64,000 bases of DNA from Chiloscyllium plagiosum (Eukaryota): contig NC_057719.1 of the NCBI RefSeq assembly GCF_004010195.1, positions 36,543,959 through 36,607,958 of the forward strand, read 5' to 3'. The position numbers were made by a program, and so were the translations under genes. The first letter of the stretch is position 1. The number at the start of each line of letters is the position of its first letter. Of this stretch, positions 3,222 through 52,082 are shown piece by piece. The notes under the pieces are model-generated. The model did not search any database. It saw only the letters and a program-made list of their open reading frames with translations, and was not told the origin of the DNA.

Positions 3222-3317
3222 GGATTCCTGAAGAAGGGCTTATGCCCGAAACGTCGATTCTCCTGTTCCCTGGATGCTGCCTGACCTGCTGCGCTTTTCC
3301 AGCAACACATTTTCAGC
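3222..3317 (+). ncRNA. Minimal type I hammerhead ribozyme in a short Penelope-like terminal repeat fragment (family A)
   Basis: ggattc-CTGAAGA-AGGGC ttat GCCC-GAAAC-GTC-gattct. Core intact, predicted cleavage after C3255. Confidence 0.75.
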
Positions 3318-5037
3318 AGGGGAGATAAATCAGTCAGGGGGTTGAGGTGTGTCCTCAGTTGGAGGTCTCCTCCCAGGACAATCTGGGGGGTGAGCCACAG
3401 TCAGTAATGGAGATTGGGAATTAAATGTCACGGGGTGGAGTTATCAGGATGCAGTGCTATTCTGCAGCAATTTGGAAAGTCAAGAATGAGGACTGCAGCC
3501 AGCATGTTGTGATAAGGATGGGTCATGCACTATGGGCAGTGTTTGGATTGGACACAAGATGGGGACAACTGTAGATAAAAGGTTGGGAGCAGAAAGAGCA
3601 GTCAACAATTCCTAAACACATGCCAAAGGTCTCAACGGCTGTACAACGGCACAGAGCTGTGTTTTCCTCTCGCATTGAATTTAAGTATCCCAGAACATGC
3701 TCCTATAAGCAATGTGGCATTTCTTGGGGGAATGTGGTGAGGTTTAGAGTACAATGTTTCAGTCGTACTTACAATTTCCCGCTGTATCTGCATGATAAGG
3801 CTTATGCTGCCATCATCTGAATAACATCACTCACCATCCTGACAGAAACTGCATGTGGTTATCTGTTAGTTACCTAGTGAGTTGCAGAGAAGCAGGAGAA
3901 TTGAATTGACTGGAATATACACCAAGATAAATACAGCATAATATCAGGTAGTGATTTTAACCAATTTAAATAATGTCAAATCATGAAGCTTGAGAGGATT
4001 AACAATGTTATCTGAATCTAAAAAATTCCTAGCCACCTATCAATGCACATAATTACACTCTGATGTTTTTTTAAAAGAGTGCTAAGAACAACCATGTCAA
4101 GTGAGCAATTTGTAGTGTATGACAATATCATGATTGAATTGGCTGCTGTGTGCAGAATTCATCACGATGACATGTTACACTAAGCAAATACAGTATTTTA
4201 TCATTCTATTTCCTTGCAAGCTGCAAAGAGATAACTACTGATTATTTTCATGCAAAATTATTAAAACTAATCAATCCTGACAGACATGTGCCACAATTGC
4301 ACAGAAACATATTTATGCTTTAGAATAGTTATTTCCTGTCCATTTCAGAAGCATGGTGATTGTTTTAATTTACTTTCTGACAAAAATGTTTTTCCTTTTG
4401 TTCTAACTCAGGTTCTCATTGTTGTTATTTCAGGGTTCAACCAGTGACACGATCAGTCTATTCAGTAAATAAATACACAGGGGTCAGAAAATTCCCTGCT
4501 TCAATTCCCAGTTTTTGCTCAGTTCATTGTATACATTCACAGGCATATGAAATGAGCCTGACAAAAGGCTTAGATTTATACAGAATTTCCCAAAGGAACC
4601 TTCTGAAGAATCACTACGGTTGTAGTGCAGGAGGTATGGCAGCTAATCTATACTGAGAAACTCAAACAGCAATGTGATAATGCAGCTTTATATATTAATT
4701 AAGGAATGTTGCCCAGGATCGTTGGGATATCTCAAACAAAAGCAAAATACTGCGGATGCTGGAGATATGAAATAACAAAAACAAACTTTTTTTGAAGAAA
4801 CTCTGCAGGTCAGACAGCATCTGTGAAAAAAAGTTAATGTTTCAATAAGACTATTTGGAATTAACGATAACTTTGCTGCTTTTCTTTGAAAAAATACTTG
4901 GTATCATTGATATTGATCTGTGCAGGAGGGTAGACCTGGATTTAATATTTGATCCAAAAGACAGCACTTCCAAAATTACTGTGCTTCCTCAATACTTGGA
5001 TCTGAAATGGAGCTTGAACCCAGACCTTGCTATAGTT

Positions 5038-5195
5038 ATGATGGGAGCTGCTGGTTGGACTGGGATCGACAAAGTCAGGAGTCACATGACACCATAAGCT
5101 TTCAGAGCGCCGCACCTTCATCAGGTAACACTTCAGTGTTCTGAAAGCTTATGATTTCAAATAAATCTGTTGAACTACAACCTGATGTTGTGTGA
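5038..5195. mobile_element. Short Penelope-like insertion with inverted arms and degenerate hammerhead (family B)
   Basis: TSD CTTGCTATAGTT at 5026-5037 and 5196-5207. Minus-strand CTGATGAAGGTGCGGCGCTCTGAAAGCTT at ~5096-5124. Confidence 0.65.
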
Positions 5196-5775
5196 CTTGC
5201 TATAGTTGACAAACAGAAGCACTATTAACACAAAATTAGTTATTGGCTTGAAGTTTAACATTAACTTTACATCACAGTGTTAATGATGAAATTAATTATT
5301 CTAAAATATATAGTGTAAACTCAATGCATCTTGAACAGTGCTATATTATCTGGTCCTAAAGTTGAATACTACTATTCCTAACAGATCTCTCCTTCTTGTT
5401 ACATACAAATCATTGTGCTGCATTCAGGTGTCCAATATATATCTATGTTGAAACATGAAAGCATCATCACTTTGATATGTCTGCACTACAAATGCAAAGA
5501 AATGCCACAGTCATTTCTATAATCAGAAACATTAACTAATAGGCTGGTGTAAATTCTGTAATGTCAGATGTTGCAGCACAAAACCTGTTTTTGCCTTCAT
5601 ATGCAGGATAATTCCAGCTGAAGATCTCTTTATACTAAGAAAACAATGAAATGTTCAATAATGAAAACTACCGCACAACATTTGGTAATCTAGCAGCATA
5701 AACTGCAGACAGCAGCTCCTGCCCTCCACTGGTATTAACGGAATCCCTGAAATGCCATGATCTATTTCTTTGGTG

Positions 5776-5853
5776 AGAGTGTGGTGCTGGAAAAGCACAG
5801 CAGGTCAGGCAGCATCTGAGGAGCAGGAGAAGCATCTGCAGTTCTCATTTTCT
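5776..5853. mobile_element. Very short Penelope-like terminal fragment with inversion junction
   Basis: Perfect 15-bp TSD TCTATTTCTTTGGTG at 5761-5775 and 5854-5868. Sequence is shared with the PLE termini at ~33030-33105 and ~45790-45860. Confidence 0.7.
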
Positions 5854-6899
5854 TCTATTTCTTTGGTGTTTAAATACTTTACTACCTGAGAGACAAGAAA
5901 ATCAATCTACGGGTATCTATATTATCAGCCTCACATGCTGCAGTAAGATGTTAACATTTAGTTTTGTAGGCGTGCTGCTTTCTGACATGGTAACATCATT
6001 CAAACACCAGATTAAACCAAGACTACTAAATTGGCTTTCAAACACAACAGTCCTGATGTTTAGGTCACTAACAAGTTTTATCCTTGGTTAAAAATTGTTT
6101 TGATTCTGTCAGTTCATTCCGTCTTGTTATGTACTGATTCAAAATATGTATATTGTTCAAACATTAATTGCAATACTTTGAAAATGTGGTATTCTAATCA
6201 GCCATGATCAAAGAAAATTGTTTTATAATTTGTGAGTCTGAGATTTAATACATGTTCTGTGCGCAGCTGAAAAAAATGGAGATGCCATAATTAGCAGTAA
6301 CGTCTCATGGATAAAGAACCTAAAGAAACAACAACTCCATTCCTGCTCCTGACTATGGTTGAGGAAATCATTCTGGAAATCTTACATATGTATACTATAA
6401 AATAGGGACACCCAAATAAATCCCAGATACTCACAGGAAGGGAACTGGGTTCTTTAGAAACAGAAGGGGCTTTCTTCATACTTAAGAATCAATCTCATAT
6501 GGAATTGAGATGCCATCAGTGCAATAAATATCAAATCATTTGAAACTTATTGGGATCAATACTTATTTGGCAAAAAAAAGGAGACTAGTTCTGAGAAAGA
6601 ATCTTGATAAAGATTCAAGTAGTTAGAATAATCTATTCTCATTCATCCATTCTTAAAAACAATACACGTCTAACAACTGCTAACAGCAACCTGTATTCTC
6701 GGAACTCTTCCTTAATACATGCCAAGTAACCAGGATTAATAATCATTTATTAATTTAATAATACAGTTCATGAACAAAGTCTTTAAGTCTTATGCAATAA
6801 CACTGGATCTTCTAAGGTATTTAGAATATTAAACCAGATGGCACTCATTTATTAAGATTATAATGCTGCGTAATTAATAAGGCATTATTCTGTTTTAAT

Positions 6900-8220
6900 A
6901 TATGTTTCTATCCATTTAAGGTTACTGGTTCAGAGACTCTTCTTCCACTACTTATCAGGAAGAGTTCCAAAGACTCAGGATCCTTTGTGAAAAGAACTTT
7001 GTCTCATCTCTGAATTGCTTCCAAAGCATTTCCATTCTTTTTAAATAAGGTAGCCAATACTAAACACAATATTCCAGATGTGGTCTCAGCAGTGCCCTGT
7101 ACTTCTTATTTATATATTCAATTCCCCATGCAATAAACAATAACATTCTATTAGTTTTCCTCATAATTTGTATCTTCAGGCTAGCCGTTTGTGATTCATT
7201 CGCCAGGCCACCCACTTCCCTCTGCAACTCTGAACTCTGCAATCTCTCACAATTTAGATTAATTAAAGAAAACCAGCTCTAATTTGTTAATGAGAACTGA
7301 TGTTTAACTAAATTCATTAAACTTTTTTAATGAAGTAACAGACAGGATTGATGAAAGTAAAGCAATTAATGTGGTGTCTATGCACTCCTAAAAGTCATTT
7401 TAAAAGCACCTCAGAAGCAGTGGTTAGCACTGCTGCCTCACAGCGCCAGAGACCCGGGTTCAATTCCCGCCTCAGGCTGACTGTGTGGAATTTGCACATT
7501 CTCCCTGTGTCTGCGTGGGTTTCCTCCGGGTGCTCCGGTTTCCTCCTACAGTCCAAAAATGTGCAGGTTATGGGAACTGGCCATGCTAAATTGCCCACAG
7601 TGTTAGGTTCAGGGGTAAATGTAGGGGAATGGGTCTGGGTGGGTGCGCTTCAGCGGGTCGGTGTGGACTTGCTGGGCCGAAGGGCCTGTTTCCGCACTAT
7701 AAGTAATCTAAAAAGAAACTAAAAAAAAAGCTTGGCAACAGCTTGGCCCGCAGAATAAAAGAGACATTGGCAGCAAGGCTACAATGATGGCTGATTGACA
7801 GGAAGCAGAGTAGCAAAACATCTGATTCTCAGACTGGAGTGGACACAGTGATTTTCCTCACTGATTTTCATATACAAGAATGGCACAATTTCAAAATTTG
7901 CATATCACACAAAACTTGAAGTTTGAGAATAATATGAAGGATGGTATTAAACATCACGAGGACATAGAAAGGTTAACTGGAATGGGCAGACAAGTGGCAG
8001 ATTAGATAGATTACACTGCAGGGAAATGTAAACTGATGTATTTTGATGAGAAGTGATACAACGGAAACATAATTCCAAAGGGTGGACAGAATAGAGATCT
8101 GCAGAATGTGCTCAAATAATTGAAGGTGACAGGTCAGGTTAATAAACCAATAGGAAAGCATAAAAGATACCGAGTTATATAAATAAAGGCATAGTGATGA
8201 CCTTAATTTGGTTGTGGCTG
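6900..8220. mobile_element. Old CR1-type LINE remnants (- at ~6900-7260, + at ~7290-8220)
   Basis: Motif YRALLRPHLEYCV on the minus strand. Degenerate RT-region similarity to other CR1 copies in the window. Confidence 0.6.
7415..7730 (+). mobile_element. tRNA-derived SINE (V-SINE/HE1-like)
   Basis: A-box TGGTTAGCACTG, B-box GGTTCAATTCC, central GTGGGTTTCCTCCGGGTGCTCCGGTTTCCTCC domain, CR1-like tail. Homologous to 25683-25960 and 36765-37097. Confidence 0.85.
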
Positions 8221-9749: not shown

Positions 9750-9833
9750 AATTAATAAATAGTAATAATATTAATAAAAAATAGTAATAATATTAATAAA
9801 AATAAATATTAATAAAAATTAATAAATAAATAT
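9750..9833. repeat. AT-rich tandem/low-complexity repeat
   Basis: AATAGTAATAATATTAATAAAA repeated twice plus degenerate copies. Confidence 0.8.
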
Positions 9834-12750: not shown

Positions 12751-12777
12751 AAGATATACGGGGTAGATTGGGCAAGT

Positions 12778-14910
12778 GAGTCATAGAGATGTACATCACG
12801 CAAACAGACCCTTCAGTCCAACTCACCTATGCAGACCAGATATCCGAACCTAATCTAGTTCCATTTGCCAGCATTTGGCCCACATCCCTATAAACCCTTC
12901 CTGTTCATATACCCATCCAGATGCCTTTTAAATGTTGTAATTGTACCAGCCTCTGGCAGCTTATTCCATACACACACCACCGTCTGTGTGAAAAAGTTAC
13001 CACTTAGGTCCCTTTTAAATCTTTCCACTCTCACCCTAAATCTATGCCATCTAGTTCTGGACTCCCCCACTCCAGGGGAAAGACCTTGTCTATTTACCCT
13101 ATCCATGCCCTTCATGATTTTATAAACCTCTATAAGCTTCAGCCTCCGATGCTCTAAGGAAAACAGCCCCAGCCTATTCAGCCTTTACTGATAGCTCAAA
13201 CCCTCCAACCCTTTCAAGTTTCACAACATCTTTCCAATAGGAGGGAGACCAGATTTGCACACAATATTCAAAAAGTTACCGAACTAATGTCCTGTCCAGT
13301 CGCAACATGACCTCCCAGCTCCTTTACTTAATGCTCTGCCTAATAAAGGAAAGCATACTAAACCTCTTCTCACTATCCTATCTACTTGAGACTCCACTTT
13401 CAAGGAACTATGAACCTGTACTCCAAGGTCTCTTTGTTCAGCAACACTCCCCAGGACCTTACCATTAAGTGTATAAGTTCTGCCCTGTTTTGCCTTTCCA
13501 AACTCCATCTGCGACTCCTCGACGCATTCACCCACCTGATCAAGATCCTGTTGTACTCTGAGGTAACCTTCGTTGCTGTCCACTACACCTCCAATTTTAG
13601 GGTCATCTGCAAACTTACTAATTATACCTCCTATGTTCATATCCAAATCAATTATATAAATGATGAAAACCAGTGGACCTAGCACCAATCTTTGTGGCAC
13701 ACCACTGGTCACAGGCCTCCAGTCTGAAAAACAACCCTCCACCACCACCCTCTGTCTTTTACCTTTGAGCTAGTTCTGTATCCAAATGGCTAGTTCTCCC
13801 TGTATTCTATGAGATCTAACCTTGCTAACAGGTCTACCATGAGGAACCCTCTTCAACGCCTTACTGAAATCCATATAGAACACATCTACCACTCTGCCCT
13901 CATCAATTCTCTTTGTCGCTTCTTCAAAAAACTCAATCAAGCTCGTGAGACAAGATTTCCCACGCTCTAAGCCATGTTGACTATTCCTAATCATTAAATC
14001 CTATTCCTCAGAATTCCCTCCAACAACTTGCCCACCACCAATGTCAGGCTCACCTGTCTGAAGTTCCCTCGCTTTCCCTTGACACCTTTCTTAAATAGTG
14101 GAATCACGTTGGCCAACCTCCAGTCTTCTGGCACTTCACCTGTGATTATTGATGATACAAATATCACAAAAAGGAGCCCAGCAATCACTTTCCCAGCTTT
14201 TCACAGAGTTCCACGGTACACCTGATCAGGCCTTGGGGATTTATCCACCTTGCTGTTTTTTAAGACATCCCACACTTCCTCCCCTGTAATATGGACATTA
14301 TTCAAGATGTCACCATCTATTTCCCCACATTCTATATCTTTCATGTCCTTTCCCACAGTAAACACTGACACAAAATATTTATTTAGTATCTCCCCGAATT
14401 TCGGCTCCACATAAAGGCTGCCTTGCTGTTCTTTGAGGGTCCTATTCTCTCCCTAGTTAGCCTTTTGTCCTTAATGTATTTATAAAATCCCTTTAGATTC
14501 TCCTTAATTCTATTTGCCAAAGCTATCTCATGTACCCTTTTTGTCCTCCTGATTTCCCTGTTAAGTATGTTCCTACTGTTTTTATACTCTTCTAAGGATT
14601 CACTTGATCTCTGCTGTCTGTACCTGACATATTCTTACTCCTTTTTCTTAACCAAACCCTCAACTTCTTTAGTCATCCAACATTCCCTACACCTACCAGC
14701 CTTTCCTTTCACCCTAACAGGTACATACTATCTCTGAATTCTCATTATCTCATTTTTGAAGGCTTCCCATTTTCCAGCCGTCCCTTTACCTACGAACATC
14801 TGTCCTCGGTCAACTTTTGAAAGTGCTTGTCTAATACTGTCAAAATTGGCCTTCCTCCAATTTATAACTTTAACTTTTAGATCCTGTCTATCCTTTTCCA
14901 TCACTACTTT
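12778..14910 (-). mobile_element. CR1-clade LINE (HER1-like), 5'-truncated, frameshifted ORF2
   Basis: ORF pieces PEDWRLANVIPLFKKG, QHGLERGKSCLTSLIEFFEE, YMDFSKA, VTSGVPQRLVLGPLVFIIYI, KFADDPK. 3' end ...CATCTCTATGACTC. Confidence 0.92.
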
Positions 14911-15148
14911 AGACAGAGTTGAGGCAGAAGATCAGCTATTATTGTACTGAAGGGCAGACGAGATTCTAGGAACATACGGTTTACTCCTGCTCCTCAATCA
15001 GATGTTGTATTCTTATGTTCAGTGTTTTTTTTGGAAGTTCATTAAAGGAGTCAGAATGACATATTGAGTAATAGTATTAATGATGAATGATGAATGGTGT
15101 ATGGTAAATGATCTAATGCTACAGTAAGCATGCCTCATTTACATTAAC

Positions 15149-15364
15149 AACAATAGAAATTGCTGGAAAAGCTCAGCAGGTCTGGCAGCATCTGCAGAAA
15201 GATATCAGAGTTAACCTTTCGGGTCCATTGATCTTTCCTCAGAACCGGAATGGTCTCACTTGACCCAAAACATTAACTCTGATTTCTCTCCATAGATGTT
15301 GCCAGAGCTTTTCCTGCAATTTCTGTTTTTGTTTTTGGTTCACTGCATCTGCAGTTCTTTCAAT
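15149..15364. mobile_element. Short Penelope-like insertion with inverted arms and degenerate hammerhead (family D)
   Basis: Imperfect TSD CCTCAT(T/C)TAC(A/T)TTAAC at 15133-15148 and 15365-15380. Minus-strand gttCTGAGGAAAGATCAATGGACCCGAAAGGTTaac at ~15210-15245. Confidence 0.65.
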
Positions 15365-31143: not shown

Positions 31144-33104
31144 TTGAGAGTGTGGTGCTGGAAAAGCTATTCATCAGGAATGAGGCTTGTGGGCTGGGGG
31201 GGCTGATAAATGGGAGGAGGGGTGAGGTGGGGGGGAAGGTAGCTGAGAATGTGATAGGTAGATGAAGGAAAGGGAAAAGGTAATAGGTCAGAGAGGGGTT
31301 GGAGTAGATAGATAGGAAAGGTGATGGACCGGTCAGGAGGGCGGTGCTGAGGTGGAGACTTGGGACTGGGATAATTATCCCATGTGGTTGCAGGGTCCCA
31401 AGGCAGAAGATGAGGCTTTCTTCCTCCAGACGGCAGGTGGTAATGATTTGGAGATGAAGAAGACCCAGGCCTTGCACGTCCTTGGCGGAGTGGAAGGGGG
31501 GGTGTTGAAGTGTTCAGCCATGGGGTGGTGGGGTTGGTTGGTGCGGGTGTCCCAGAGATGTTCTCTGAAACGATCTGCAAGTAGGCATCCTGTCTCCCTG
31601 ATGTAGAGGCGACCACATCAGGTGCAACTGATACAGTAGATGACATTGGTAGTGTTACGGGTATCTGTCGGATGTGGAAGGATCCTTTGGGGCCTTAGAC
31701 AGAGGTGAGGGGAGTAGTGTGGGCACAGGTATCCGTGGTTAGTCAGTCACTGGATATAGAGAGGTCCAGGAAGGGGACAGAGGTGTCCAAGATGGTTCAG
31801 GTGAATTTGAGGTTGGGGTGGAAGTATTAGTAAAGTTGATGAACTGTTCAACCTCCTCGAGGGGGCACAAGGCGGCACTAATACAGTCATCGATATAGCG
31901 GAGGAACGGATTGGGAGTGGTACAGAAAATGGACTGTTCCACGTACCTGACAAAGTGGCAGGCATAGTTGTGTCCCATGTGAGTGCCCATGGCTATCCCT
32001 TTGGTTTGAAGGAAGTGGGAGGATTGGAAGGAGAAGTTGTTGAGGGTGAGGACCAGTTCAGCCAGGCAGATGAGGGTGTCGGTGAAAGGCTACTGGTTGG
32101 GACGGCGTGAGAGGAAGAAACGGAGGGCTTGGAGGCCTTTGTCATGGCGGATAGAGGTGTACAGACTGGATGTCCATGGTGAAGATGAGGCATTGGGGGC
32201 TAGGGAAACGAAAATCTTGGAGGAGGTGAAGTGCGTGCTGTCTGAAACGTAGGTGGGGAGTTCCTGGACTAAGGGGGACAGGACGGTGTCAAGGTAGGCA
32301 AAGACAAGTTCAGTGGAACAGGTTCAGGCTGAGACAATGGGGTGACCGTGGAAGTCAGGTTTGTGAATCTTTCGTATGAGGTAGAATCAGGCGGTGCAGG
32401 GTTCACAGACAATGAGGTTGAAGGCTGTGGACAGGAGATCCCCAGAGGTGATGAGGTTGTGGATAGTCTGGGAGATGATGGTTTGGTGAGGTAATGGCTG
32501 AGGGGACAATAGGAGGAGTTGTCTGCAAGTTGGCACCTGGCTTCAGTGGTGTAGAAGTTGGTGCGCCAAACTACCACTGTACCCCTTTTGTCTGTGAGTT
32601 TGATGGTGAGGTTGGGGTTGAAGTGGAGGGCACCACCGGATTCTACCTCCTACCAAAGATTCACAAACCTGACTTCCCCGGTCAACCCATTGTCTCAGCC
32701 TGCGCCTGTCCCACTGAACTCATCTCTGCCTACCTTGACACCATCCCCTTAGTCCAGGAACTCCCCACCTACATTTGGGACACCACCCACGCCCTTCACC
32801 TCCTCCAAGATTTTCGCTTTCCTAGCCCCCAACGCCTCATTTTCACCATGGACATCCAGTCCCTGTATATCTCTATCTGCCATGACGAAGGCCTCCAAGC
32901 CCTCCATTTCTTCCTCTCATACTGTCCCCACCCCCCCCGTCCCATTTATCTCTCAGCCCTCCGGCCCACAAGCCTCATTCCTGATGAAAGACTTATGCCC
33001 GAAATGTCGATTCTCCGGCTCCTCGGATGCTGCCTGACCTGCTGTGCTTTTCCAGCACCACACTCTCGACTCTGATCTCCAGCACTTACAGTCCTCACCT
33101 TCTC
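31144..33104. mobile_element. Penelope-like element (RT + GIY-YIG remnants) with inverted architecture: - strand to ~32630, + strand after
   Basis: FYLLPKIHKPDFPGQPIVSACACPTELISAYLD, FTMDIQSLY, AMGTHMGHNYAC, FLRYIDDC and GIY-YIG C-terminus EEESLIFCLGTLQPHG. Imperfect TSD CTCATTCC(A/T)TCTGT(A/C)G at 31128-31143 and 33105-33120. Degenerate hammerhead at ~32981-33008. Confidence 0.88.
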
Positions 33105-33183
33105 CTCATTCCTTCTGTCGCAGGGTTTGCAAATTCAGTCTGGATTTCCACTCTGAAAAGTCATCCTTGATCTCAAGGGACTG

Positions 33184-33282
33184 ATTCCTGATGAAGGGCT
33201 TATGCCTGGAATGTTGATTCTCCTGCTCCTTGGATGCTGCCTGACCTGCTTTGTTTTTCCAGCACCACACTCTTGACTCTTG
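33184..33282 (+). mobile_element. Short PLE terminal fragment starting at a degenerate hammerhead
   Basis: ATTCCTGATGAAGGGCTTATGCCTGGAATGTTGATTC, flanked by AGGGACTG direct repeats. Confidence 0.65.
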
Positions 33283-33329: not shown

Positions 33330-34285
33330 TCTATCTTTGGGAACCCCACACCTTTTTTTTATGGGAACTCATTTATTGTGAACTCTCTCTCATGTCTTCC
33401 TTCAATAATTCTCTCTGCTTTGATACTGATTTACCTTCAAAATAACCAATATTAGTCTATATTTAATCCAATCGCAAATCATATTTCAACTTAATAAAAT
33501 TGACTGTTGCCCAAATTAAAACTTCTACTTGTGCTCTATATTTGTCCTTTTCCATAATTATGATCACTAACATTAAAATGCTCCCTCACCGAAATCTCTT
33601 GCCATTGTGAAGAAATATCATGTTGGATTTGAAACTTTATGTTTCTCTCTCCATAGATGCTGCCAGACCCTCTGAGTTTCCCCAGTATTTTCCCCAGATC
33701 ACTGACATCCAAAGTACTTTGCTTTTTCAGATCACCAATATCCACAGCACTTTGCTTTTAACCCTTTTACCTGCTGAGCCTCATTTCATAAAGCTACATC
33801 CAGAACCTGTCTAATCGCTGCTTGAATTTGCTATATACTGAAAAATACATTTCCCCGAAATGCATTAAGAATTTTGTGCCTTTTAAAATATTAGGGTAAT
33901 TGAAACCCCTGCTGTTTTGCACTTCTTAGCAAATTGTTTACATATTTGATCCTCTTGTAATGGTCTATTGTTCTGATTATATGACGCTCTATAGAATATA
34001 TCCCACGGTAGTATCATTACTGCTTTTTTGTTACTCAGTGCAACCCAATATATTGTCATTTGATGATCCTTCTCGCATGCCATCTCTCCTCACAGCTGTG
34101 ATTGTTTCTTTAACCAATATCACAATTCCTTTCCTCCTTTTTAATTTCCACTTTATCCAATTTTATTTTGAGCTCCCATTCCTGACCTCCTTTAAGCCAC
34201 TCTTTAGAAATGTCAATGATATCATACTTCCAAATACCTATCTGTGCCCTCTGCATATTCACCTTATTCATTGGACTCCGTGAAA
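33330..34285 (-). mobile_element. Old CR1 endonuclease-region remnant, with a short repeat inserted at ~33620-33760
   Basis: RAQIGIWKYDIIDISKEWLKGGQEWEL and EHFNVSDHN resemble the CR1 AP-endonuclease region. Confidence 0.6.
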
Positions 34286-34381
34286 CACATACCAATCACC
34301 AAACAGCTCCTTTTGTTGTTTATTTTCTCAATTCTTCATATATGATTAGTTTCATGACATCCATTCTACTGTACTTAGCAG

Positions 34382-34578
34382 GAGAAAGTGAGGACTGCAG
34401 ATGCTGGAGATCAGAGCTGAAAAATGTGTTGCTGGAAAAGCGCAGCAGGTCAGGCAGCATCCAAGGAACAGGAGAATCGACGTTTCGAACATGAGAAGGG
34501 CTCATGCCCGAAATGTCGATTCTCCTGCTCCTTGGATGCTGCCTGATCTGCTTCGCTTTTCCAGCAACGCATTTTCAG
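34382..34578. mobile_element. Short PLE insertion, inverted arms joined at the hammerhead region
   Basis: Perfect 16-bp TSD CTACTGTACTTAGCAG at 34366-34381 and 34579-34594. Arms ~34415-34495 and ~34496-34580 are reverse complements. Confidence 0.8.
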
Positions 34579-36764
34579 CTACTGTACTTAGCAGCAGATT
34601 TTGTCACAAATCATGCTTTTCTTGTAATGTTCAAATACTTGCTAAGCTTTTGGATCACCTATAAAGCTTTTGATGATTTTATAAAAATGACTTTACAAAC
34701 ACATATATGACTAGAAAATGTAAGGACTAAACCAGTGTATTTTCACACTAGAAATAGTATTCAATTCAGCCCAGACTCTGCAGGAAACAAAAATGCAGCA
34801 GGAAATGCAGAACATCAATGTCATCAAGTCTGACCAGCTATAGCATGGTTAGCTACAAAGCTAACCTTGCTTTACTCTGCCATAGCAATGTGAGGAGTCT
34901 GAATCTCAGCAGAACTCACCCAACTGTAGAATTGTTTTAAACTAACATCATTGTCATAGCTAATTTCTGCTAAATTAGAGGCATTTTAATGTCCTTAAGT
35001 TTAGTGCTGCCAAAATTAATTCCATTTGGCACATTTAGTAAGTAGACAGAGAAGATTTTATCCCATTAACTAAGATGTAATTTGATCACAGATGTCAGAG
35101 GTGAAAGCATCTAATTCTCTGATCCAGTCACCATACACTCTGATTATATTCCATGTTACATTTAGACCTATATGTACATTAGATGCAGGACATTGGAAAA
35201 AGAAGTATGTATTATCCTTTGGAGGTGATATTCTTCTCAATGCAAAATACAAAAACACCAAAATATCAAGATTAGAAAGTTGTAAACACCAAACCCGAGT
35301 TTAAGATAATCAAAAATTGACAACAGAGAGCAAGGCAGCAGGACGAATTAGACTGCTGTTTCAAAAAAAACTGGCACAGACACAATGGGTTAAATTCTCC
35401 CGTCTGTGCTGCTGCTCTGTATACAGCTCGTGCCAGGCTGAGTGAGAGGAAATGGAGTTTTATTAAATAGCCCACAGACTAAAGTCATGAGAAACAAAAC
35501 CACAAGGCAAGTGAATTTAATTCAAGTGAAAGCCAATCCTGACCTCAACTCAATTAGTACCAGCAGGGACACAAGAAAAAAGGCAGACATTTAACTGAAG
35601 TTCTCTTCATGTCATTCCTCTGTGTCCAGCTTGTTTCTCAGTGCCAGCTGTCTATCCTTTAATTTATGTTTTAATTGACAGCCAAAAGCTAATGCCTCCC
35701 TATCAACCTTTCTAAATAACTTGTTACATTACAACAAATAGGGAAAGCATGCCTAAATATTGGAAACAGTGGAACTGCAGATTTCACGGCCTCAAAATTG
35801 TATTCTGAATGTTAAAATCAGAGGGCTTTTTTATCATTACCATCCCTGCCTTACTTATATTGTATTTTGTTTCCAGTTTCAGGCTGGACAGTTCAGGTCC
35901 AGACCTCATGGAAACATATCAGCATCAAAAACCAACTCTGTTCCCATTTAAGATTCAGTTTAGCACTATCTGAGGTTACCTATGTTGACACATGTTTGGG
36001 CACTGCATAGATTTCTCTCTGATTGTCAATTGGGCATCCACCCCATGACTGATTGGGAACATCTCAAGGAGAGAATAATGCCCCAATACCTTGAGCAGGG
36101 TCAAATCATTTGAGAGCACCATGCCAAGTTGTCCTGGTGTCAAATGGAGGCCAATTTTCTGAGGACTGAACTGATGTCAACAGAGGGGCAATGGTTGCCT
36201 CTTGCAAATAACTGACCAGTCTCAGCTGGTGGAGTTTGCGGGCATCCATTCAGGCATCTGCATAGATGGCCACTTCAGAGCTATTTGATTTGGGACAAGA
36301 GTCTTCCATTTGATTCTTAGAAGCTTCTGTATATATTGGTACTACTAATGCATCTAATGGTGGGAATAGGATGGAAAAGATTGGTTATTAAGCATCCTTA
36401 ATAACCAATGGCACCCTTCAATATTGAGGTAACAACCAGAGAAACCCTTTGTCCCTTTTAGCTTTTTGTGTTCAGAGTAGACCTGTCCAGAATCAGAAGG
36501 GTGAGAGAATAGAGAGGAAAACTTTTTCAGTAAGTATCAGCCTCAGAAGTCATCAAATGACATGCTTTCTGAAAGTGTGCTAAGACTAGTTGACAGGTTG
36601 TCTGTGATCTCACTCAAACTGCACTGCACTGCACTTCCCTTACTGTTCAGTTTTCACAAACAGCACTGGGTCAGATTTCACAACTACACCTTGAATTTCC
36701 TCAGTTGAGGTACAGGCGAAGCAGCAACACCCATAATAAGCAGCTACAGGGTATAGGGCAACAT

Positions 36765-37097
36765 GCTGATTAGCACCAATGCCTCACAGGACCAGTAACC
36801 CGGGTTCAATTCCAGCTTTGGGTGACTGTCTGTGTGGAGTTTGCGCATTGTCTTTGTGTCTGCTTGGGTTTCTGCCAGGTGATCCAGGTGCTACAGTCCA
36901 AAGGTGTCCAGGTCCAGTGGATTGGATATGTTAAATTAGCCCATAGTGTGCAGGGATGTGTAGGTTAAGTAGATTAGCCATGGTAAATGTGGCATTACAA
37001 GGTTAGGTTAAGAGTTTGTGTGGGATGCTCTTCAGAGGGTCCGTGCAGACTCGATGGGGATAATGGCCTCTTTCCACATTGCAGGGATTCTATGATT
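36765..37097 (+). mobile_element. tRNA-derived SINE (V-SINE/HE1-like), diverged
   Basis: B-box GGGTTCAATTCC, GTGTGGAGTTTGC core, tail GATTCTATGATTC. Confidence 0.75.
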
Positions 37098-41372: not shown

Positions 41373-41731
41373 TCCTGCTATATGACTTTATTACATAATA
41401 AATGCTGTTGAACCATGCCAGAGAAACTTTACAGTAGGAATAGAATCATACAGTACAGAAGAGGCCCTTCAGCCCATCAAGTGAATCACCAAAACTAGGT
41501 ACATTTAGCCAAAAAGGAATTTCCTAGACTTAAATATAGAAAGTATTTCAATATGTCGGAGAAAGAGGTATTCACAATGATGATAATAAATATAAAATTG
41601 TACATGGCATGTATCAAAAATCTGTATTAAAATGTAACTTTATGAGCATCACACTATCCATTATAGAGAGTGCATATCAGGCAGAATCAAATTTAATGAT
41701 TTTGTTTTTTGCAAACACTGAAGCTGAATAC

Positions 41732-42191
41732 TCCGCCTAGGCCATGCAAGTCCTGGGCCTCCTCCACTGCCAAATCCAAGCCACCCAATGCCTGGAGGAA
41801 GAACACCTCATATTCTGCCTTGTGACCCTTCAACCACACAGCCTCAATGTGAATTCCACCAGTTTCCTCATCTTTTCCATCTCCCCACCTTATCCCAGAT
41901 TCAACCCTCCAACTCGATATCGCCCTTTTGAACTGTCCATCTTCCTTCCCACCTATTCGCTCCAACCTCCATTCTGACTTATCACCATCAGCCCCCACCT
42001 TCATTTATCTCAACTGGTAGCCTTCCAAATTACCTTCGCTCCAGCCCCACCTCGTTTATCTCTGAGCCCCCTTGGGCACCTCCCTTCACTCCTACATTTC
42101 TGATGAAGGGCTTATGCCCGAAACGTCGACTCTCCTCCTCCTCTGATGCTTCCTGACCTGCTGTGCTTTTCCAGCACCAAATGTTTTGACT
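41732..42191 (+). mobile_element. PLE 3' fragment (GIY-YIG C-terminus + 3'UTR + hammerhead)
   Basis: MQVLGLLHCQIQATQCLEEEHLIFCLVTLQPHSLNVN. Flanked by CTGAATAC at 41724-41731 and 42192-42199. Confidence 0.8.
42095..42133 (+). ncRNA. Minimal type I hammerhead ribozyme, intact core (family A)
   Basis: CTGATGA(42100-42106)-AGGGC ttat GCCC-GAAAC-GTC. Predicted cleavage after C42127. Confidence 0.72.
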
Positions 42192-42439
42192 CTGAATACC
42201 TGATTGGTCAGGCCAGCACAATTATATAACTACAAAATAATTTATATTTCATGATAAAATCAGATCTTTCTAACTTAAGGATTTTGTCTTCAGGTTCTTT
42301 GTAATCATCACCCTTCAGTTAAATGTACCCTGCATTTATATAGTGTCTGGACTGTAACAGAAAAATATTTCCAGGAATAAAATAAATACATATGCTCGAT
42401 AGCTTTAGCTATAAATTCTGTGATCATGATCTGATTCGC

Positions 42440-43590
42440 CACAACCACCTGATGTAAGAGCGGTGCTCCGAAAGCTACTGCTTCCAAATAAACCTGGTGA
42501 GACTATAAACTGGTGTAGTGTAATTTTTAACTCTATAGCTAAAATCTGAAAGAACTGCAGATGTTGTAAATCAGAAACAAAACAGAAGTTACTGGAGAAG
42601 CTCAGCTATTCTGGCAGCACCTGTGAAGAGAAATCAGAGTTAACATTTCGGTTTCAGTAAGCCTTCCTCAGAACTGATGGTAGCTAGGAAATGTCAGTTT
42701 ATATGCGGAAGGTAGGGTGGCAGAGGGGGATAAAGAGTAAATGATGGGTGGGGATAGAGGCAAAGAGAGAGAAGAATAGTTGGACAGACAACGGAGTGGA
42801 TAACAATCAGGCTGAGAGGATGAATAACTGTTAATGGAGACTGTTAGTGGCTAACAATAGGTAATCTGTAATGGCAGACTAAAAGATTACAAGGCCTAGT
42901 GTGTGGGGCAGTGGGCTAGGACATGGGAGAGGTCAGTCCCTAAACTTATTGAATTCGATATTGAGTCTGGGAGGCTGTAGGATCCCTAAGTGGAAAATGA
43001 GGTGTTGTTCTTCCAGCTTGCATGAGACGAAGATGTTGGCAAGGGAACAAGTTGGTGTGTTAAAGTGGCAGGCACTGGAAGCTCAGGGACTTTTCTGCAT
43101 GCAGAACATAGATATTCTGCGAGGCAGTCACCTAGTCTATGCTTCGTTCCCCCAATGTAGAGGTGACAACATTGTGAACAGCAAATGCAGTAGACTAGAT
43201 TGCAAGAAGTGCACGTGCTACTTTGTCTGGAAGGTATGTTTGGGTCCTTGGATACTGAGGAGGGAGGAGGTAAATGGGTAGGAGTTACACCTTGGGCAAT
43301 TGTAGGCCAAAGTGCGGTGTGGCTGTGGGGGATGTTGGGAATGAAGGAAGAATGGACTAGGTGTCGCAGAGGGAACAGTCCCTGCAGAAGGTGTACAATA
43401 GAGGGGAGGGGAATATGTGTCTACTGGTGACATCTAACTTGAGGTGGTGGAAATAGCTGCTGATAATCTTCTGTATGTGGATCTGGTGGGATGGTAGGAA
43501 AGGACAAGGGGAATCCTATTGCTGTTTGGGAGAGAAGAGAAGTGGTGAGGGCGGAAGTGTGGGAGATGTATCAGATCCAGTTGACGGCTA
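42440..43590. mobile_element. Family-B PLE terminal fragment (+, ~42440-42530) and degenerate family-D PLE (-, ~42545-43590)
   Basis: CAACCACCTGATGTAAGAGCGGTGCTCCGAAAGCTA on +. Minus-strand gttCTGAGGAAGGCTTACTGAAACCGAAATGTTaac at ~42639-42674. Remnants NRIPLVLSYHPT and CPRCNSYPFTSSLLSIQGPKHTFQ. Confidence 0.7.
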
Positions 43591-45780: not shown

Positions 45781-46593
45781 AGAGAAAGTGAGGGCTGGAG
45801 ATCAGAGTCGAGAATGTGGTGCTGGAAAAGCACAGCAAGTCAGGCAACATCTGAGGAGCAGGAAAATCGACGGTTTGGGCATAACCCCTTCATCAGGAAT
45901 GAGGCTTGTGAGTCGGGGCTGAGAGATAAATGGGAGGGGGGGTGGGGTTCGGGGGAGATAACTGCATGTCACTGGCAGAGTGGGAGGGGGAGGTGAAGTG
46001 TTCAGCCACGGGGTGGTGGGGTTGATGGATGTGTCCATTGTACCCGGTGTGGTCTCCTCTACATCAGGGAGACAGGATGCCTTCTTGCGGATCATTTCAG
46101 AGAACATCTCTGGGACACCCACACCCACCAACCCCACTGCTCCATGGCTGAACACTTTAACTCCCCCTCCCACTCCGTCAAGGACATGCAGGTCCAGGGC
46201 CTCCTCCACCGGCAAACCGTTACTACCCCCACACCTGGAGGAGGAACGCCTCACATTCCGCCCTGGGACCTTGCAACCACATGGGATAAATGTGCATTTC
46301 AACAGCTTCCTCATTTCCCCTCACCCCACATTATCCCAATCCCAAGCCTCCAACTCGGCACTGCCCTCCGGACCCATCCATCACTGCCCCCGCTGACCTA
46401 TCACCTTCTCCCTCACCTTCATCCGCCTATCACTTTCCCAGCCAGCCACCTCCCTCCAACCCCAAGCCACTCGCTTTTGTCTCTCAGCCCAGACCCACAA
46501 GCCTCATTCCTGATGAAGGGCTTATGCCAAAAATGTTGATTCTCCTGCTCCTTGGAAGCTGCCTGACCTGTTGTGCTTTTCCAGCACCACTCT
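45781..46593. mobile_element. PLE insertion with inverted halves (GIY-YIG remnants, two degenerate hammerheads)
   Basis: Perfect 15-bp TSD CTGGCTAACTAAGTA at 45766-45780 and 46594-46608. AEHFNSPSHSVKDMQVQGLL and EEERLTFRPGTLQPHGINVHF. Hammerhead remnants at ~45868-45896 (-) and ~46510-46537 (+). Confidence 0.85.
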
Positions 46594-47468
46594 CTGGCTA
46601 ACTAAGTAGTTCACATGATATACAAAGCGCAATGTTACCAATCTTTTGTGGGATATCCTTCACCACCAATGTACTGTGGCAATAGTGTGTATCAGTTATA
46701 AGATGCACTACAGCAACTCATCCAGGCAATTTTTACAATAGCTTCCAAATTCACTTCTGGCACTTAGAAGAACAAGGGTAGCCGATGCATGAGAACGTAA
46801 TTTCTTGTAAGTTCTCTTTGAGTCTCATGCTGACTTGGAACTATGCTGTCACTCCTTCACTGTCACTTGGTAAGAATCCAGTAATTCCTTGCAAATAACA
46901 CTGTGGGTCTATTTAAATCCCAAGGACTGCAAAAGTTCAGGAAAGCAGTTCATCAGTACTTTCTCCACAGTAATTAGGAATGGGCAATAAATGTGAGCCT
47001 AGCCAGCAATGCCCACATAACACGAAAGTAAGAAAAATGAAGATGTAACAGCTGTACTTTAGGATCCACACTTCAACTGATGCATTGTATAATTCTTTGA
47101 ACCACTGCAGTTCTTGAAGGAGTAATACTTCCATTACAGTGTTCGGTGGAAATGTAACTGAACACCATTTTCCATACAAAATCAAACATTACAGCTTGCA
47201 AGTAACTAAATATTCTGTTATTAATTTAGCTTTATGATTTCTAAATAAAATACAGGCTGTTAAAATAGAAATCTCTTTAAAATTCCATTTTTTCATTCCT
47301 ACACACTGTAAATGGCCACTATCAACATCAATGCATCTGCAAAAACTCTAATATTACTTGCTCGCACATACACCCCAATAATATGTCATGAATAGAGAAC
47401 TTGCAATATACAGCATCTCACAAATGCAAGAGGTGCTTGTATACTAATGTTCAGCAGACATATAGATC

Positions 47469-47801
47469 AAAGTTTGTGAGAAGATTTGTAGCTCGGGTGC
47501 TCATTTGTTGTGGTTCTGTTCGCCGAGCTGGGAGTTTGTGTTGCAGACGTTTCGTCCCCTGTCTAGGTGACATCCTCAGTGCTTGGGAGCCTCCTGTGAA
47601 GCGCTTCTGTGATCTTTCCTCCGGCATTTGTACTGGTTTGAATCTGCCGCTTCCGGTTGTCAGTTCCAGGTGACTGCAGATTCAAACCACTACAAATGCC
47701 GGAGGAAAGATCACAGAAGCGCTTCACAGGAGGCTCCCTCACCTAGACAGGGGACGAAACGTCTGCAACACAAACTCCCAGCTCGGCGAACAGAACCACA
47801 A
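47469..47801. mobile_element. Young palindromic PLE-type insertion (family C) with intact minus-strand hammerhead at ~47542-47583
   Basis: Perfect 14-bp TSD CAGACATATAGATC at 47455-47468 and 47802-47815. Near-perfect inverted arms. Minus-strand gca-CTGAGGA-TGTCACCT AGAC AGGGGAC-GAAAC-GTC-tgc. Confidence 0.82.
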
Positions 47802-48884
47802 CAGACATATAGATCTGACATATATTTAGATTGATGAAGGACAAATATCATAACCCATCTTTTCTCTACACAGATAGTTAGATTAACTATTTGTTTACAC
47901 AATTTTGTGTAGATTTCAGATTTTCAGCATTCACAGACTTTTTGTTTAATTTTATTCCATTTATATAGCAAAGGTCATGCTAGCAGTTTATTTTACTCTG
48001 CTGCCATCATCAGGTCAGAATTCATACAAAGGGCAGAATCTTTTAGTCTTAGACTACGAACATACAGACCCCAATCCTGCTGTGCCTGACAGGCACCCAA
48101 CTGGGAGATCTGCTGAGATGTGACCAATAAGGAGGCTGCTTCTGTGTCGACTATCTTGGGCAGATCCCTAAGGTTGAACACCCAGAGGACCCTCAGCCTT
48201 GGAAGGACAGCAGTCCTGCTTCTAGTGATGGGTTCTGACACTGTCAGAGAGAACATTAGGATGCTGACACTTTGAGGTGCCTTCTGAAGTGATATTAAAT
48301 TCAATTAAGTGAATGAGAGTAACAGTTGTGAGGCCTCTGGTTGTGGTGAGGAGACTGATGGCCTCTCCAAACTTGCAGATCAGTCGCCTGTCAACCTAGC
48401 ACTCAGTGTGGGAACCACTCACCACCAAAACGATTTACAGCGGAATGTCTAATTAGCCCACAAACAGGTACTTATTTATGCAGACTGTCTAGTCACTACT
48501 GACAGATGGGTAGCCTCCGTAGGTACTGATTCATCTCCAGGAAGATTGACCGGATGAGAATTTCTCAGATATTTCTCTGGTCCTCCCTTGACAGCTGCCT
48601 CCATGGTACCAGGAAGATTCCACTCAAGAAAAGTAGAGTACTAATATTATCTTAATACTGGTTGCATTCATACTATGAAAGCAAAAGCTGAGAAAATGTG
48701 TGCATTTTCCTTGAGGGACATAGCGATACCAGTCAACAGTGTTGTCAAACAGCTGTGAAATCTCGACTGCAAACATACACTAGATCTTCAATCTAAATTT
48801 GCACAAATTTTATTAGGTTGAAGGTGAAAAATACTCACTTGTATCTACCCTGTAAAAATAATCCAATCCAAAAGTCACATCAAT

Positions 48885-49770
48885 CAGCATTTCTTCTTCC
48901 CTTGGAATGAAGGATAACATGTTTCTATTCTAGTTTGGTGGGTTTTGAAATGGCTGATCAGTCCAATCCACAATCTACAGACTCTATCACAAATAGCACA
49001 TGAAGGGTTGGGTAAATGGGTTGTTTGTAGGCTTCCCCAACAGCTTGATTTCACTCCTGCATGTTCCAAACAAAGTCACTCAATGTGCATGGCACCCTCT
49101 CAAATGAGCTTTTTTCAACTTTGGTCAATCATAAGCCTGGATCTCCCATAAGTCAGCAAGTATGTTTGATCCTTTTATGGCTGCTTTAATGACATTGTTA
49201 AAGCGTTTCCTCAGGGTCCCTGGAAGTCTCCAGCTGTGACTGAGTTCTGAGTATAGCTTCGAACATTGTTTCGCAAGTCTGGTGTCAGGCACACAAATGA
49301 CATATTTCGCCAAGCAGAGCTGGTTTTGAGTGACTCTTGCCTTGATGCTGGGCATGTTGGTCTGCTAGCAGATTGGGAGAATTTTGTGAAGGCACTGTTA
49401 GTAGCACCTCTCCAGCGCTTTGAAGTCCAACCATATAGGAGAGCAGGAATCACTACTGTCTAGTAAATCATGCTCTTGCTCTCGAGTTTAAGGCTCTGGT
49501 CCCCAAATATTTCAGTTGGTCAAAGGCTGAGCTGACACACCTGAGGTGCAGTTGAATTTCATTGCTTATACCCACCTTTGTCGAAAGGAGGTTCCCAAGG
49601 TATACAACATGGACAATTTTCCAGGACTTTGTCACTGATTTTAGCCTAGAGAGGGAGGAGATGTTTCACTGAGTTGATTGGAAGATGACCTTGGTTTTCT
49701 AGGTCTGTAGTGAAGGGCCCATTTTCTCATATGCTTCAGAGAAAGGGTCAATATTTACCTGATGCTCAGG
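48885..49770 (-). mobile_element. RTE-clade LINE 3' portion, degenerate
   Basis: VIPALLYG, LYSELSHSWRLPGTLRKRFNNVIK and C-terminal zinc finger CAICDRVCRLWIGLISHFKTH. AAGAAGA tail. Confidence 0.8.
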
Positions 49771-49824
49771 TAAGTCCAAGTCCAGCCAACTGAGCTGATT
49801 AACCCCCAGTGTTGGTTGGCAATC

Positions 49825-50015
49825 AATTAGCTCAGTTGGCTAGATGATTAGCTTGCAATGCAGAGTGACATCAACAGCGTGTGTTCAATTCCCGCAGCAG
49901 ATGAAGTTATCATGAAGGATTCTCCTTCTCAACCTCCCCTTCACTTGAGGAATGATGACCCTCAGGTTAAATCACCAGTTCTTTCTCCCTGAGACAGCAA
50001 CTCTAATAATCTAAT
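49825..50015 (+). mobile_element. tRNA-derived SINE (second family); homolog at ~56137-56320
   Basis: A-box TAGCTCAGTTGG, B-box-like GTTCAATTCCC. The body CTCCTTCTCAACCT...GACCCTCAGGTTAAA is shared by both copies. Confidence 0.7.
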
Positions 50016-50027
50016 AGTGACCATCAT

Positions 50028-50711
50028 TGATGACAAAGGCTTCTGCCATCCAACAATTATATGATTGACTCCTGGATAGTTAAACAGCTTGTGGATGTGA
50101 ATACCTGGTTAGAAGCCAGCAGACATCCAAAATAGAAGATGCTGTCCTACTCTCTGTAGTAAAAAGCACATCAAGCCTGAGGAAAGCAGTTTATTTCCCC
50201 CACCAGTGGCTATAAGCTGTGGCTTTTAACCAATAAAGCAGAGATCTCATAAGGGCAAACCAGCCACCTTCTGCCTACTGTAAGCAAGTGAAAAATCGAG
50301 GAGCAGCAAATCCTCTCAAACCAAAAGAATCATCGCTGTAAACCTAGTGGGCAGGGATTAATGAACGCGTCCCTATTCTTTCCCTCGACCCATAAAACTC
50401 ATTATTTTTGTATCTCTCTCTCTCTCTGTCTATATGTGTCTGTACAAGGACTTATATAAGCAGGTTAGAGAGTTAGATAGTAGTTTTATATGCCAATGGT
50501 TCATAATTGTTACTTCTAACTGGTATTTATTTATTTGTAATAAACAGTAATCCTTGTTAAGTACAGAAATCTGCTCTGTCCTTCCTATCAGTTTGGGTCT
50601 AAAAGACTGAAAATTGGAGAATTTTGCATACTTTATAAAATCATTATTTTTTTTTGATGACTCCAGGAATAGTGAGGTTTGACTTGTGTATTACCTCAGA
50701 GAGGTGCAACA
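50028..50711 (+). mobile_element. Possible solo LTR
   Basis: TG start and CAACA end, internal (TC)n, AATAAA at ~50539. TSD is not convincing. Confidence 0.35.
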
Positions 50712-51471
50712 CTTTGACAAAAATGCGCAAGAAATACAAGACCCAAACATAAAGCTTTCATTGATTGAAAACCGGGACTCCCACCAACTGGGAACAGCAT
50801 GTTTCCCTCTAAGTCACTCACCATCCTGACATGGACCGACATCATTGTACCTTCACTGTTGAATGGGATCAAAATCTGGGCATTCCCTCCTTATCAGCTT
50901 TGTACAACATGGATTGCAGTAATTCAAGAAGCCGGTTCACCACACACTTTCTCCACAGCAATTAAGGATGGGCAATTATTGCTGGCCGAGGCAGCCATGA
51001 ATGAGTTTAAAAAATCTTCACCACACTCAAGGGAGAAGCAGCAGCCTGACTAGCACCATACAGAACAAATGACAGGTAGAAAAAAATGCAGGAGATTCAA
51101 TAAGTATCATATATCCATCAGCATAATATAAATATAAATCTGAATCTCAATCATGCATGATAAACACCACATTCTGTAAGATTAATACTGTACAGACAGA
51201 TTTCAACACCTCAACCCCAGCAATCAGATGCTTCAGCAACCATAAAAATTGCACCCACCCAGAAATGGAACAATATTCAACAAATCAAAGAAACATGATC
51301 AAAGCTAAAATTTATTATCAGATTTTTTTTTTAAAGTCCTCAATTTAATGATGATATATCTAAATATCAATGGCATTTTGTATGTACAATGTGGTGAGCA
51401 AGTGCACATTAATTATTTACAAATTAGTGAACAGAGCCACCTCGTGGCCATTATCTGCAATACTGTATGAC

Positions 51472-51562
51472 TCAACCACCTGATGAAGGAGCAGCACTCC
51501 AAAAGCTAGTGCTTCCAAATAAATCTGCTGGACTATAACCTGGTGTTGTGTGATTTTAACTT
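51472..51562 (+). mobile_element. Short family-B PLE terminal insertion starting at the hammerhead
   Basis: 13-bp TSD AATACTGTATGAC at 51459-51471 and 51563-51575. cac-CTGATGA-AGGAGCAGCACTCC-AAAAGCTA-gtg (GAAA core changed to AAAA). Confidence 0.75.
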
Positions 51563-51953
51563 AATACTGTATGACATTGACTAAATCAGAATGGGATACA
51601 CCACACAGCAATTTAAAATGGTACATGTGGATAGAAAAGAGTAAAAGTGTGGACAGAAAGTGGACATTTGATGTATGACTTTCAACAACAGACACTGATG
51701 TGGGCAGCAAAGTATTAAATGCATATACATATAATAGGATTTTCAGGCTCACAGTGACAGTCACCTTGAAACTAATAGCAATTGCCTTAAAATCCCCTCT
51801 GTTTCACTAAATTTAAAGAGGAAAATCTGCTGTCCTTTCCTCGTATGGTTGATATGTGACTTCAAACCCACAGCAATGTGATTGATTCTTAAATGCCCTC
51901 TATAACGACCCTAGCAAGCCACTCAGTTTAAAGCAATGAAGAATGAGTAGTAG

Positions 51954-52082
51954 GCTGAAGAAGGGCTTATGCCCGAAACGTCGATTCTCCTGTTCCCTGG
52001 ATGCTGCCTGACCTGCTGCGCTTTTCCAGCAACACATTTCCAGCTCTGATCTCCAGCATCTACAGACCTCACTTTCTCCTCA
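51954..52082 (+). mobile_element. 129-bp family-A PLE terminal insertion starting at an intact hammerhead core
   Basis: 15-bp TSD AAGAATGAGTAGTAG at 51939-51953 and 52083-52097. CTGAAGA(51955)-AGGGCTTATGCCC-GAAAC-GTC(51982). Confidence 0.8.

Follow-up and report, generated by a model that had tools for sequence, protein, structure and literature searches.

The window analysed here is a 64,000-nucleotide stretch of the genome of the shark Chiloscyllium plagiosum (contig NC_057719.1, positions 36,543,959 to 36,607,958 of the forward strand), which carries short hammerhead ribozyme motifs in an intron of the host gene WDR25. Judged from their sequence, these motifs are minimal type I hammerheads in the pseudo-long terminal repeats (pseudo-LTRs) of Penelope-like elements (PLEs), with predicted cut sites, and most of the copies here are broken or so positioned that they would be unable to act. 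Very probably, the pieces that contain them are dead-on-arrival end fragments of endonuclease-positive PLEs from at least three unrelated groups, each parent pseudo-LTR bearing one minimal hammerhead with predicted catalysis. Families A and D form one group, probably of Neptune type; family C would be Poseidon-like, and family B is left without a clade.

An earlier sequence-only reading of the same DNA had listed 14 motifs and proposed that minimal type I hammerheads, carried by PLE pseudo-LTRs of several lineages, occur together in a shark host. That proposal stands, and a motif or its decayed form is found at every coordinate in the list. In what follows, coordinates are window positions, a sign gives the strand, and bases of the ribozyme are numbered in the conventional hammerhead scheme.

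Hammerhead motifs and chance control

A tiered hammerhead descriptor was compared with 200 dinucleotide shuffles made in 1-kb blocks of the window. The bare pattern CUGANGA..GAAA occurs 20 times, against a shuffle mean of 5.8. If stem II must have 4 bp or more, 6 matches remain (mean 0.56); adding U16.1-H17 still leaves 6 (0.115), adding a self-complementary 15.2/16.2 pair leaves 5 (0.02), and adding a stem I of at least 2 bp leaves 3 (0.005). At every tier, the observed count is attained by none of the 200 shuffles. Note that this control excludes random sequence only, because the copies are repeats of one another and the descriptor was written post hoc. Among the 20 raw rows, 11 are chance occurrences that lack stem II or UH (5618, 24997, 42293, 36704, 23452, 20289, 8976, 8430 and 7179; two with a second GAAA), and one further row takes the wrong GAAA of 42671. 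The family A pattern has no match in metagenome and viral contigs.

Base-by-base scoring covers 13 of the 14 listed motifs; 34496 is left out because its start falls within the core. The conserved core (CUGANGA / GAAA / UH) is unchanged in 8 of the 13, and three motifs are complete: 3228+, 42100+ and 47579-. The H17 positions that had been predicted for family A (3255, 42127 and 51982) are correct. However, of the three family A copies that had been called intact, only 3228 and 42100 are complete. In the third, 51955+, core and stem II are intact, but 2.1-1.1 reads G.G and there is no stem I, because the copy begins exactly at C3 and host DNA supplies the 5' strand. All copies of families B and D in the window are damaged; the faults in family B are A9>U at 42449, G12>A at 51480 and the loss of the 2.1-1.1 pair at 5124.

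A self-complementary 4-mer at 15.1-16.1, with no loop 3, is present as ACGU in three of the seven family A copies (three others show CpG decay) and in family C, and as AGCU in all three copies of family B. The loopless palindrome that the sequence-only reading had described thus holds for these families but not for family D, whose two 4-mers are AGGU and AUGU (palindrome in 0/2) and for which ACGU would be a presumed ancestral form. An extra base after A9 together with a G10.1-C11.1 pair is found in families A and C in those copies that are complete, in family B at 5124 and 51480, and in family D at 42671. Helix I measures 4 bp in family D, 3 bp in C, 3 bp plus 2 in B, and 2 bp plus a mismatch plus 1 in A.

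Parent elements

The 3' pseudo-LTRs of families A and D align with a local score of 52, against a shuffled maximum of 26, and families B and C show no similarity to A/D or to each other. Because A and D share this 3' pseudo-LTR, the motifs fall into three unrelated groups rather than the four independent lineages proposed earlier. The covariation said to be visible within one window is confined to the homologous pair A/D, where C2.1-G1.1 in A becomes U-A in D; B and C cannot be aligned outside the core.

Broken reverse transcriptase (RT) and GIY-YIG remnants lie in the same sense 5' of A/D hammerheads at 31376-32931, 43109-43526 and 46030-46291, as found by tblastn with related proteins; a Pfam search leaves these fragments undetected. 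The ribozyme had been placed in sense and downstream of a GIY-YIG reading frame at 46510 and 42100. This is right for 46510, and the same arrangement is found for D at 42671(-) and for the deleted copy at about 31180(-). At 42100, the upstream sequence holds merely the last ~40 codons of the endonuclease (41730-41941, 74-78% DNA identity to other copies), and tblastn with distant queries gives no match there.

The RT piece at 32638-32922 is 85% identical to an RT of Chiloscyllium punctatum. The closest full-length relatives of A/D (P0104 and P0106) have a CX5CxxC linker. A CX2-5CxxC linker is intact in these two and in P0108; in the window copies it is decayed. By way of these relatives, A/D would be of Neptune type.

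In family C, an ATG that overlaps A9-G10.1 opens a reading frame corresponding to residues 19-41 of a second C. punctatum RT (P0118), with 21 of 23 residues identical. P0118 shares 28% identity with the family A RT and stops before the linker region. Family C is probably Poseidon-like, judging from its architecture and this 28% RT identity to the Neptune-type group.

Structure of the insertions

Together, 15 pieces amount to 5,777 bases, or 9% of the window. Six of them are inverted two-arm insertions flanked by duplications of 13-16 bp (5776-5853, 15146-15362, 31146-33108, 34382-34579, 45781-46593 and 47469-47801), and in 6/6 one arm has a short end and the other a long end. The short end lies about +85 to +95 from C3 in families A and D and at +73 in family C, and the long end 30-40 nt further. 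If the ends were independent at even odds, this pairing would be expected in 1.6% of cases. The family B insertion at 5097-5198 is excluded from this count, since a duplication is missing and the minus arm stops at neither of the known ends.

Of 22 arm starts, twelve fall between 10 nt before C3 and G12, eight lie far upstream and two lie after the cut; none starts exactly at the cut, the nearest being 2 nt after it. For this reason, the inserted RNA was presumably mostly uncut. Twenty starts were aligned; for two family A arms the reference was short or the alignment broke off at a deletion, and these two and the two reference arms were read separately. The window contains no tandem array of ribozyme units.

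Among the two-arm insertions, that at 5776-5853 (family A, 15-bp duplication) has no ribozyme core: its minus arm begins 2 nt past the cut and has the short end, and its plus arm consists of tail only and has the long end. In the family D insertion at 15146-15362 (duplication of ~16 bp with 2 mismatches), the minus arm contains the decayed hammerhead 15242 and the short end, and the plus arm runs from core/stem II to the long end. The family A insertion at 31146-33108 (also ~16 bp with 2 mismatches) holds broken RT and GIY-YIG remnants, with a deletion through the ribozyme in the minus arm (short end) and the decayed hammerhead 32981 in the plus arm (long end). At 34382-34579, a family A fold-back is joined within the ribozyme, its minus arm having the long and its plus arm the short end, with a duplication of 15-16 bp. 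At 45781-46593 (family A, exact 15-bp duplication), a minus arm with the decayed motif 45896 and the long end faces a plus arm with a GIY-YIG remnant, the decayed motif 46510 and the short end.

The fold-back at 47469-47801 is the young family C insertion, with a 14-bp duplication. Its minus arm carries the complete hammerhead (C3 at 47579, reading-frame ATG at 47573, predicted cut after 47546) and the long end; its plus arm has the short end and lacks 14 nt spanning the 5' core. The old family B insertion at 5097-5198, with no target duplication found, consists of a minus arm (core 5124) ending about at the cut site and a plus arm at 5136-5198. Several arms had been overlooked in the earlier reading, namely 5776-5853, 31146-31215, 33631-33692, 34380-34495(-), 5136-5198, 15247-15362 and 47676-47803.

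The remaining pieces have a single arm. In family A, these are 3224-3317(+), with the complete hammerhead 3228 (predicted cut after 3255), the short 3' end and no target duplication found; 33184-33282(+), with the decayed hammerhead 33188 (A13>G, CpG decay) and the short end; the 5'-truncated copy 41730-42195(+), in which the end of the GIY-YIG region is followed by the complete hammerhead (C3 at 42100, predicted cut after 42127) and the short end; and 51955-52082(+), the copy without stem I, with the long end and a 15-bp duplication. Family B contributes 42440-42532(+), with the decayed hammerhead 42449, and 51473-51562(+), with hammerhead 51480, the short end and an exact 13-bp duplication. 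A 5'-truncated family D copy at 42547-43590(-), whose upper boundary is approximate, consists of a decayed zinc-finger linker and GIY-YIG remnant followed by the decayed hammerhead 42671 and the long end, and an old D-like pseudo-LTR remnant at 33631-33692(+) begins at about G12.

Two internal deletions remove parts of ribozymes: one at 47738-47740 in the family C plus arm (14 nt, 5' core) and one at 31170-31180 in a family A minus arm (stem II to mid-tail). A mir-1253 match at 34449-34547, scoring 48.6 bits where the gathering score is 103, comes from the fold-back insertion there and does not represent a microRNA.

Family-wide sequencing data

Contigs from two DNA runs of one study were placed at 85% likeness on 51400-52120, a segment with one A and one B copy. 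In all, 80,569 and 96,684 contigs were placed, with nearly all of the depth on the A and B repeats; in a further run (X22), nothing was placed on this segment. In the summed depth of run X2, the family majority has G at 51501 (~70%) and G at 51496 (~73%), which restores stem II and G12 of family B and agrees with the form of this family given in the sequence-only reading. Among the variants listed inside the ribozymes, the best supported fall at N7, in loop II and at CpG sites. Such sites are what one would expect of master elements that preserve the structure, on an informal comparison limited to the listed variants.

Some contigs lead from the cut position 51982 back to C3 at 51955 across 6 intervening letters (depth 45 and 90), and others from the long end at 52086 to the core at 51955 across 5 (depth 36 and 51). 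Such joints could represent rare head-to-tail units elsewhere in the genome, in which dimers in cis would be possible. Ends of A or D also often occur beside the short end of family B, with 15-25 contigs per listed joint (51557 to 51955, and 51557/52045) and one case in the window (42532-42547), hinting that A/D and B elements insert beside each other.

A run of single-cell poly(A) RNA (X21; one sample, of which ~2% was read) bears on family B, although ribozyme ends are undetectable in such data and the lack of a listed pile-up of molecule ends is therefore no test of cleavage. No RNA sample is recorded as containing the stretch, which says nothing about its expression. Family B has an AATAAA signal 10 nt after the predicted cut (51518-51523, and also at 5160 and 42487), and 363 reads have an A-run behind 51538, 15 nt past the signal. 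Depth persists across the B cut site (1363 at 51501 and 1141 at 51519, in one mate direction). The A-run may instead stem from an A-tract in the genome next to a truncated copy. The three B arms that have AATAAA are all antisense to WDR25, and the sole sense arm ends before the signal; these are too few to test.

Position within WDR25

The first WDR25 coding exon is the frame at 59521-58790 on the minus strand (95% identity to the C. punctatum protein); a GT donor is immediately next to it at 58789, and the motifs are all located in the intron downstream. No further WDR25 exon was found in the window, although one might be concealed by an assembly gap (500 N) at about 56350-56850. Barring such an exon, the motifs share one intron of more than 58 kb, as had been stated. 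WDR25 lies on the minus strand, and its pre-mRNA therefore lacks the motifs of the plus strand, among them 3228, 42100 and 51955. Two of the three complete copies are therefore antisense to WDR25, and 47579- is the only host-sense one.

Folding predicts pair probabilities of 0.0 for stem II of 47579-, because this motif pairs at probability 1.0 with the opposite arm, which is transcribed first. Complete motifs are nowhere close together on the same strand, and by sequence no intact pair in the window would be able to dimerise in cis. The sole close same-strand pair of family A (32981/33188) is decayed, antisense to the host and made up of two separate insertions, and the palindromes of 42100 and 42449 are incompatible. 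Among the seven family A copies, differences from the majority number 4/77 at core and 22/315 at tail positions (Fisher p=0.80), and in this small sample there is no sign of selection on the copies after insertion.

As intron RNA of WDR25, the fold-backs 34380-34579, 47506-47803 and 15146-15362 are predicted to form hairpins of -148, -276 and -99 kcal/mol, respectively, and are possible sources of double-stranded RNA.

Interpretation

In the explanation that we favour, selection on active master elements would keep the hammerhead motif. In a tandem transcript, the 4-nt palindromes of two copies would anneal to form a common helix III, and the dimer held together in this way would cut slowly, probably aided by the element's protein; the dependence on a dimer is adopted from the literature and would apply here by analogy. 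The window copies, because they run across the cut site, were presumably written from uncut RNA. After insertion they would decay as neutral sequence, with no catalytic role for WDR25.

Several observations weigh against this explanation. A search of the window with Rfam returns 7 matches at E<=5, none of them a hammerhead family. For family B no coding remnant was found nearby in the window, and its PLE origin is for this reason argued from shared anatomy only. Stem I of family A is weak: with the upstream sequence taken from family-wide loose ends, it consists of two base pairs, then a U.U mismatch, then a single A-U. In family A, the non-CpG rate of differences is lower in the core (2/70) than in the tail (22/315), a trend beyond the resolution of the sample. 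Finally, in two-strand folding of the three complete copies, the hammerhead dimer is the minimum-energy fold in 0/3 tests; thermodynamic folding, of monomers as of two-strand pairs, ignores short core interactions and is given little weight.

How the fold-backs are made can be proposed only tentatively, on the strength of six insertions, and we regard the following scheme as unlikely to be correct in full. Both nicked target strands might start reverse transcription on a single uncut RNA, from two internal start sites, giving one tail per fold-back, with the template's 5' end just before the core and not at the cut. Family B RNA might be polyadenylated ~30 nt past the cut, which would place the ribozyme right before a working poly(A) signal and make it a possible de-tailing switch instead of a means to free the element.

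Other accounts draw on the same anatomy. The absence of arms starting exactly at the cut (0/22) and the overlap of the family C ATG with A9-G10.1 would also suit protein-assisted ribozymes, or mainly a structured 5' module, with a role as promoter, in protein binding or at the start codon, whose cleavage is dispensable for jumping. Two papers point the same way: the hammerhead of the anole Poseidon element PAc needs the element's protein for the cut, its catalytic mutants leave in vitro insertion unaffected, and no RNA-seq reads end at the cut (Frangieh et al. 2024, PMC11167929), and among nine Xenopus dimers one is active and eight show no cleavage (10.64898/2026.07.22.740005). A promoter role, however, does not explain why a loopless palindrome is kept in unrelated families in two different sequences (ACGU and AGCU), which a dimer helix does. 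Dimer cleavage has moreover been published, though it is slow (PMC4209133; PMC6765202, citing Lunse et al.); PMC4209133 gives low activity for dimers and none for a monomer. We consider this account somewhat unlikely. It is improbable that the short copies are a non-autonomous family, of retrozyme type or resembling short interspersed nuclear elements (SINEs), that spreads as ribozyme-processed monomers or circles. Many copies are indeed just 90-130 nt long with target duplications of their own, a few contigs have the head-to-tail joints from long end to core (52086 to 51955), and non-LTR retrozymes derived from PLE pseudo-LTRs, one from a cartilaginous fish included, are described in 10.64898/2026.07.22.740005. 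Yet the window has no tandem array, its unit ends lie off the cut site, unlike those of ribozyme-made monomers, and identical ends close copies that bear RT/GIY-YIG remnants.

Co-option of one or more copies to cut or regulate WDR25 pre-mRNA would have to rely on 47579-, the one complete motif on the host sense strand. This copy has no dimer partner, is young, as its near-perfect arms and duplication indicate, and is predicted to pair at 1.0 with the arm transcribed first, and the remaining complete copies are antisense to WDR25; such a role is extremely improbable. The tens of thousands of sharp-ended copies provide material for a genome-wide test of two open points about PLEs, namely whether the ribozyme cut is ever used to make the RNA that is inserted, and how the one-sided tail and the inverted arm originate.

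Other repeats in the window

An inverted repeat at 52114-52503 / 53589-53978 (390 nt, 99% complementary, 1085 nt apart) is either a DNA-transposon-like element of recent origin or an artefact of the assembly. Remnants of long interspersed nuclear elements at 12.8-13.7, 16.3-17.3, 18.5-19.5, 40.6-41.4, 53.4-53.8, 57.5-58.1 and 62.7-63.9 kb are presumably CR1-like; 13287-13769 gives an RVT_1 match (E=2e-4). The three-copy repeats at 7422, 25683 and 36768, with a tRNA-like head, we take to be SINE-like. Two plus-strand open frames have no supporting Pfam match: that of 155 amino acids at 1692-2159, which we liken to the transmembrane part of a retroviral env, and that at 317-769, with a cysteine/histidine knuckle, which we suppose to resemble the end of an L1-type ORF2.

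Comparison with known systems

Minimal hammerheads in PLE pseudo-LTRs were described in 2014 by Cervera and De la Pena (PMC4209133), with several families per genome that show compensatory changes, single motifs left by truncated elements, and pairs on opposite strands. The window motifs resemble them in being of type I, with no loop 3, a palindromic 15.2-16.2, an extra base after position 9 and G10.1-C11.1, and in forming several consensus families, mostly as single motifs with close opposite-strand pairs. They differ in their shark host and in family A, whose helix II in the window has 4 bp and whose helix I is very short; the same source gives a helix I of 2 bp in D. virilis. By sequence, the features tested agree with the published PLE minimal hammerheads or fall within their range, and cleavage is predicted.

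Like PAc (PMC11167929), family C has a reading frame that starts at the start of stem II, with the predicted cut 28 nt into the frame (26 in PAc), and two ends used as alternatives, separated by 37 nt, within the frame start. Unlike that of PAc, the clade of family C is argued from architecture and the 28% RT identity. The A/D elements share with Neptune PLEs (PMC8557442) the order of RT, linker, C-terminal GIY-YIG and pseudo-LTR, and the CX5CxxC linker is a mark of Neptune and Nematis in that source; they differ in that the linker of the window copies is decayed and the assignment is made by relatives.

The insertions follow the canonical PLE unit, with an inverted 5'-truncated arm and a one-sided tail of 30-40 bp, a tail already described for PLE insertions (PMC8557442, PMC3846280); here the tail is on one arm in 6/6. 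Their duplications, in contrast, are 13-16 bp long, against 8-10 bp in the rotifer examples. With non-LTR retrozymes (10.64898/2026.07.22.740005), the window pieces have in common the derivation from PLE pseudo-LTRs and a type I hammerhead. Those retrozymes, however, are defined by two or more successive tandem units, each with a complete ribozyme, and the window has none. No shark-specific description was found in the literature searched, nor, going by titles and the openings of abstracts, any paper on twin priming or a polyadenylation signal in such elements, although some supplements, Lunse et al. and repeat databases, which lay outside the search, may list these families. The class itself is a known one, and only its shark families are new to that literature.

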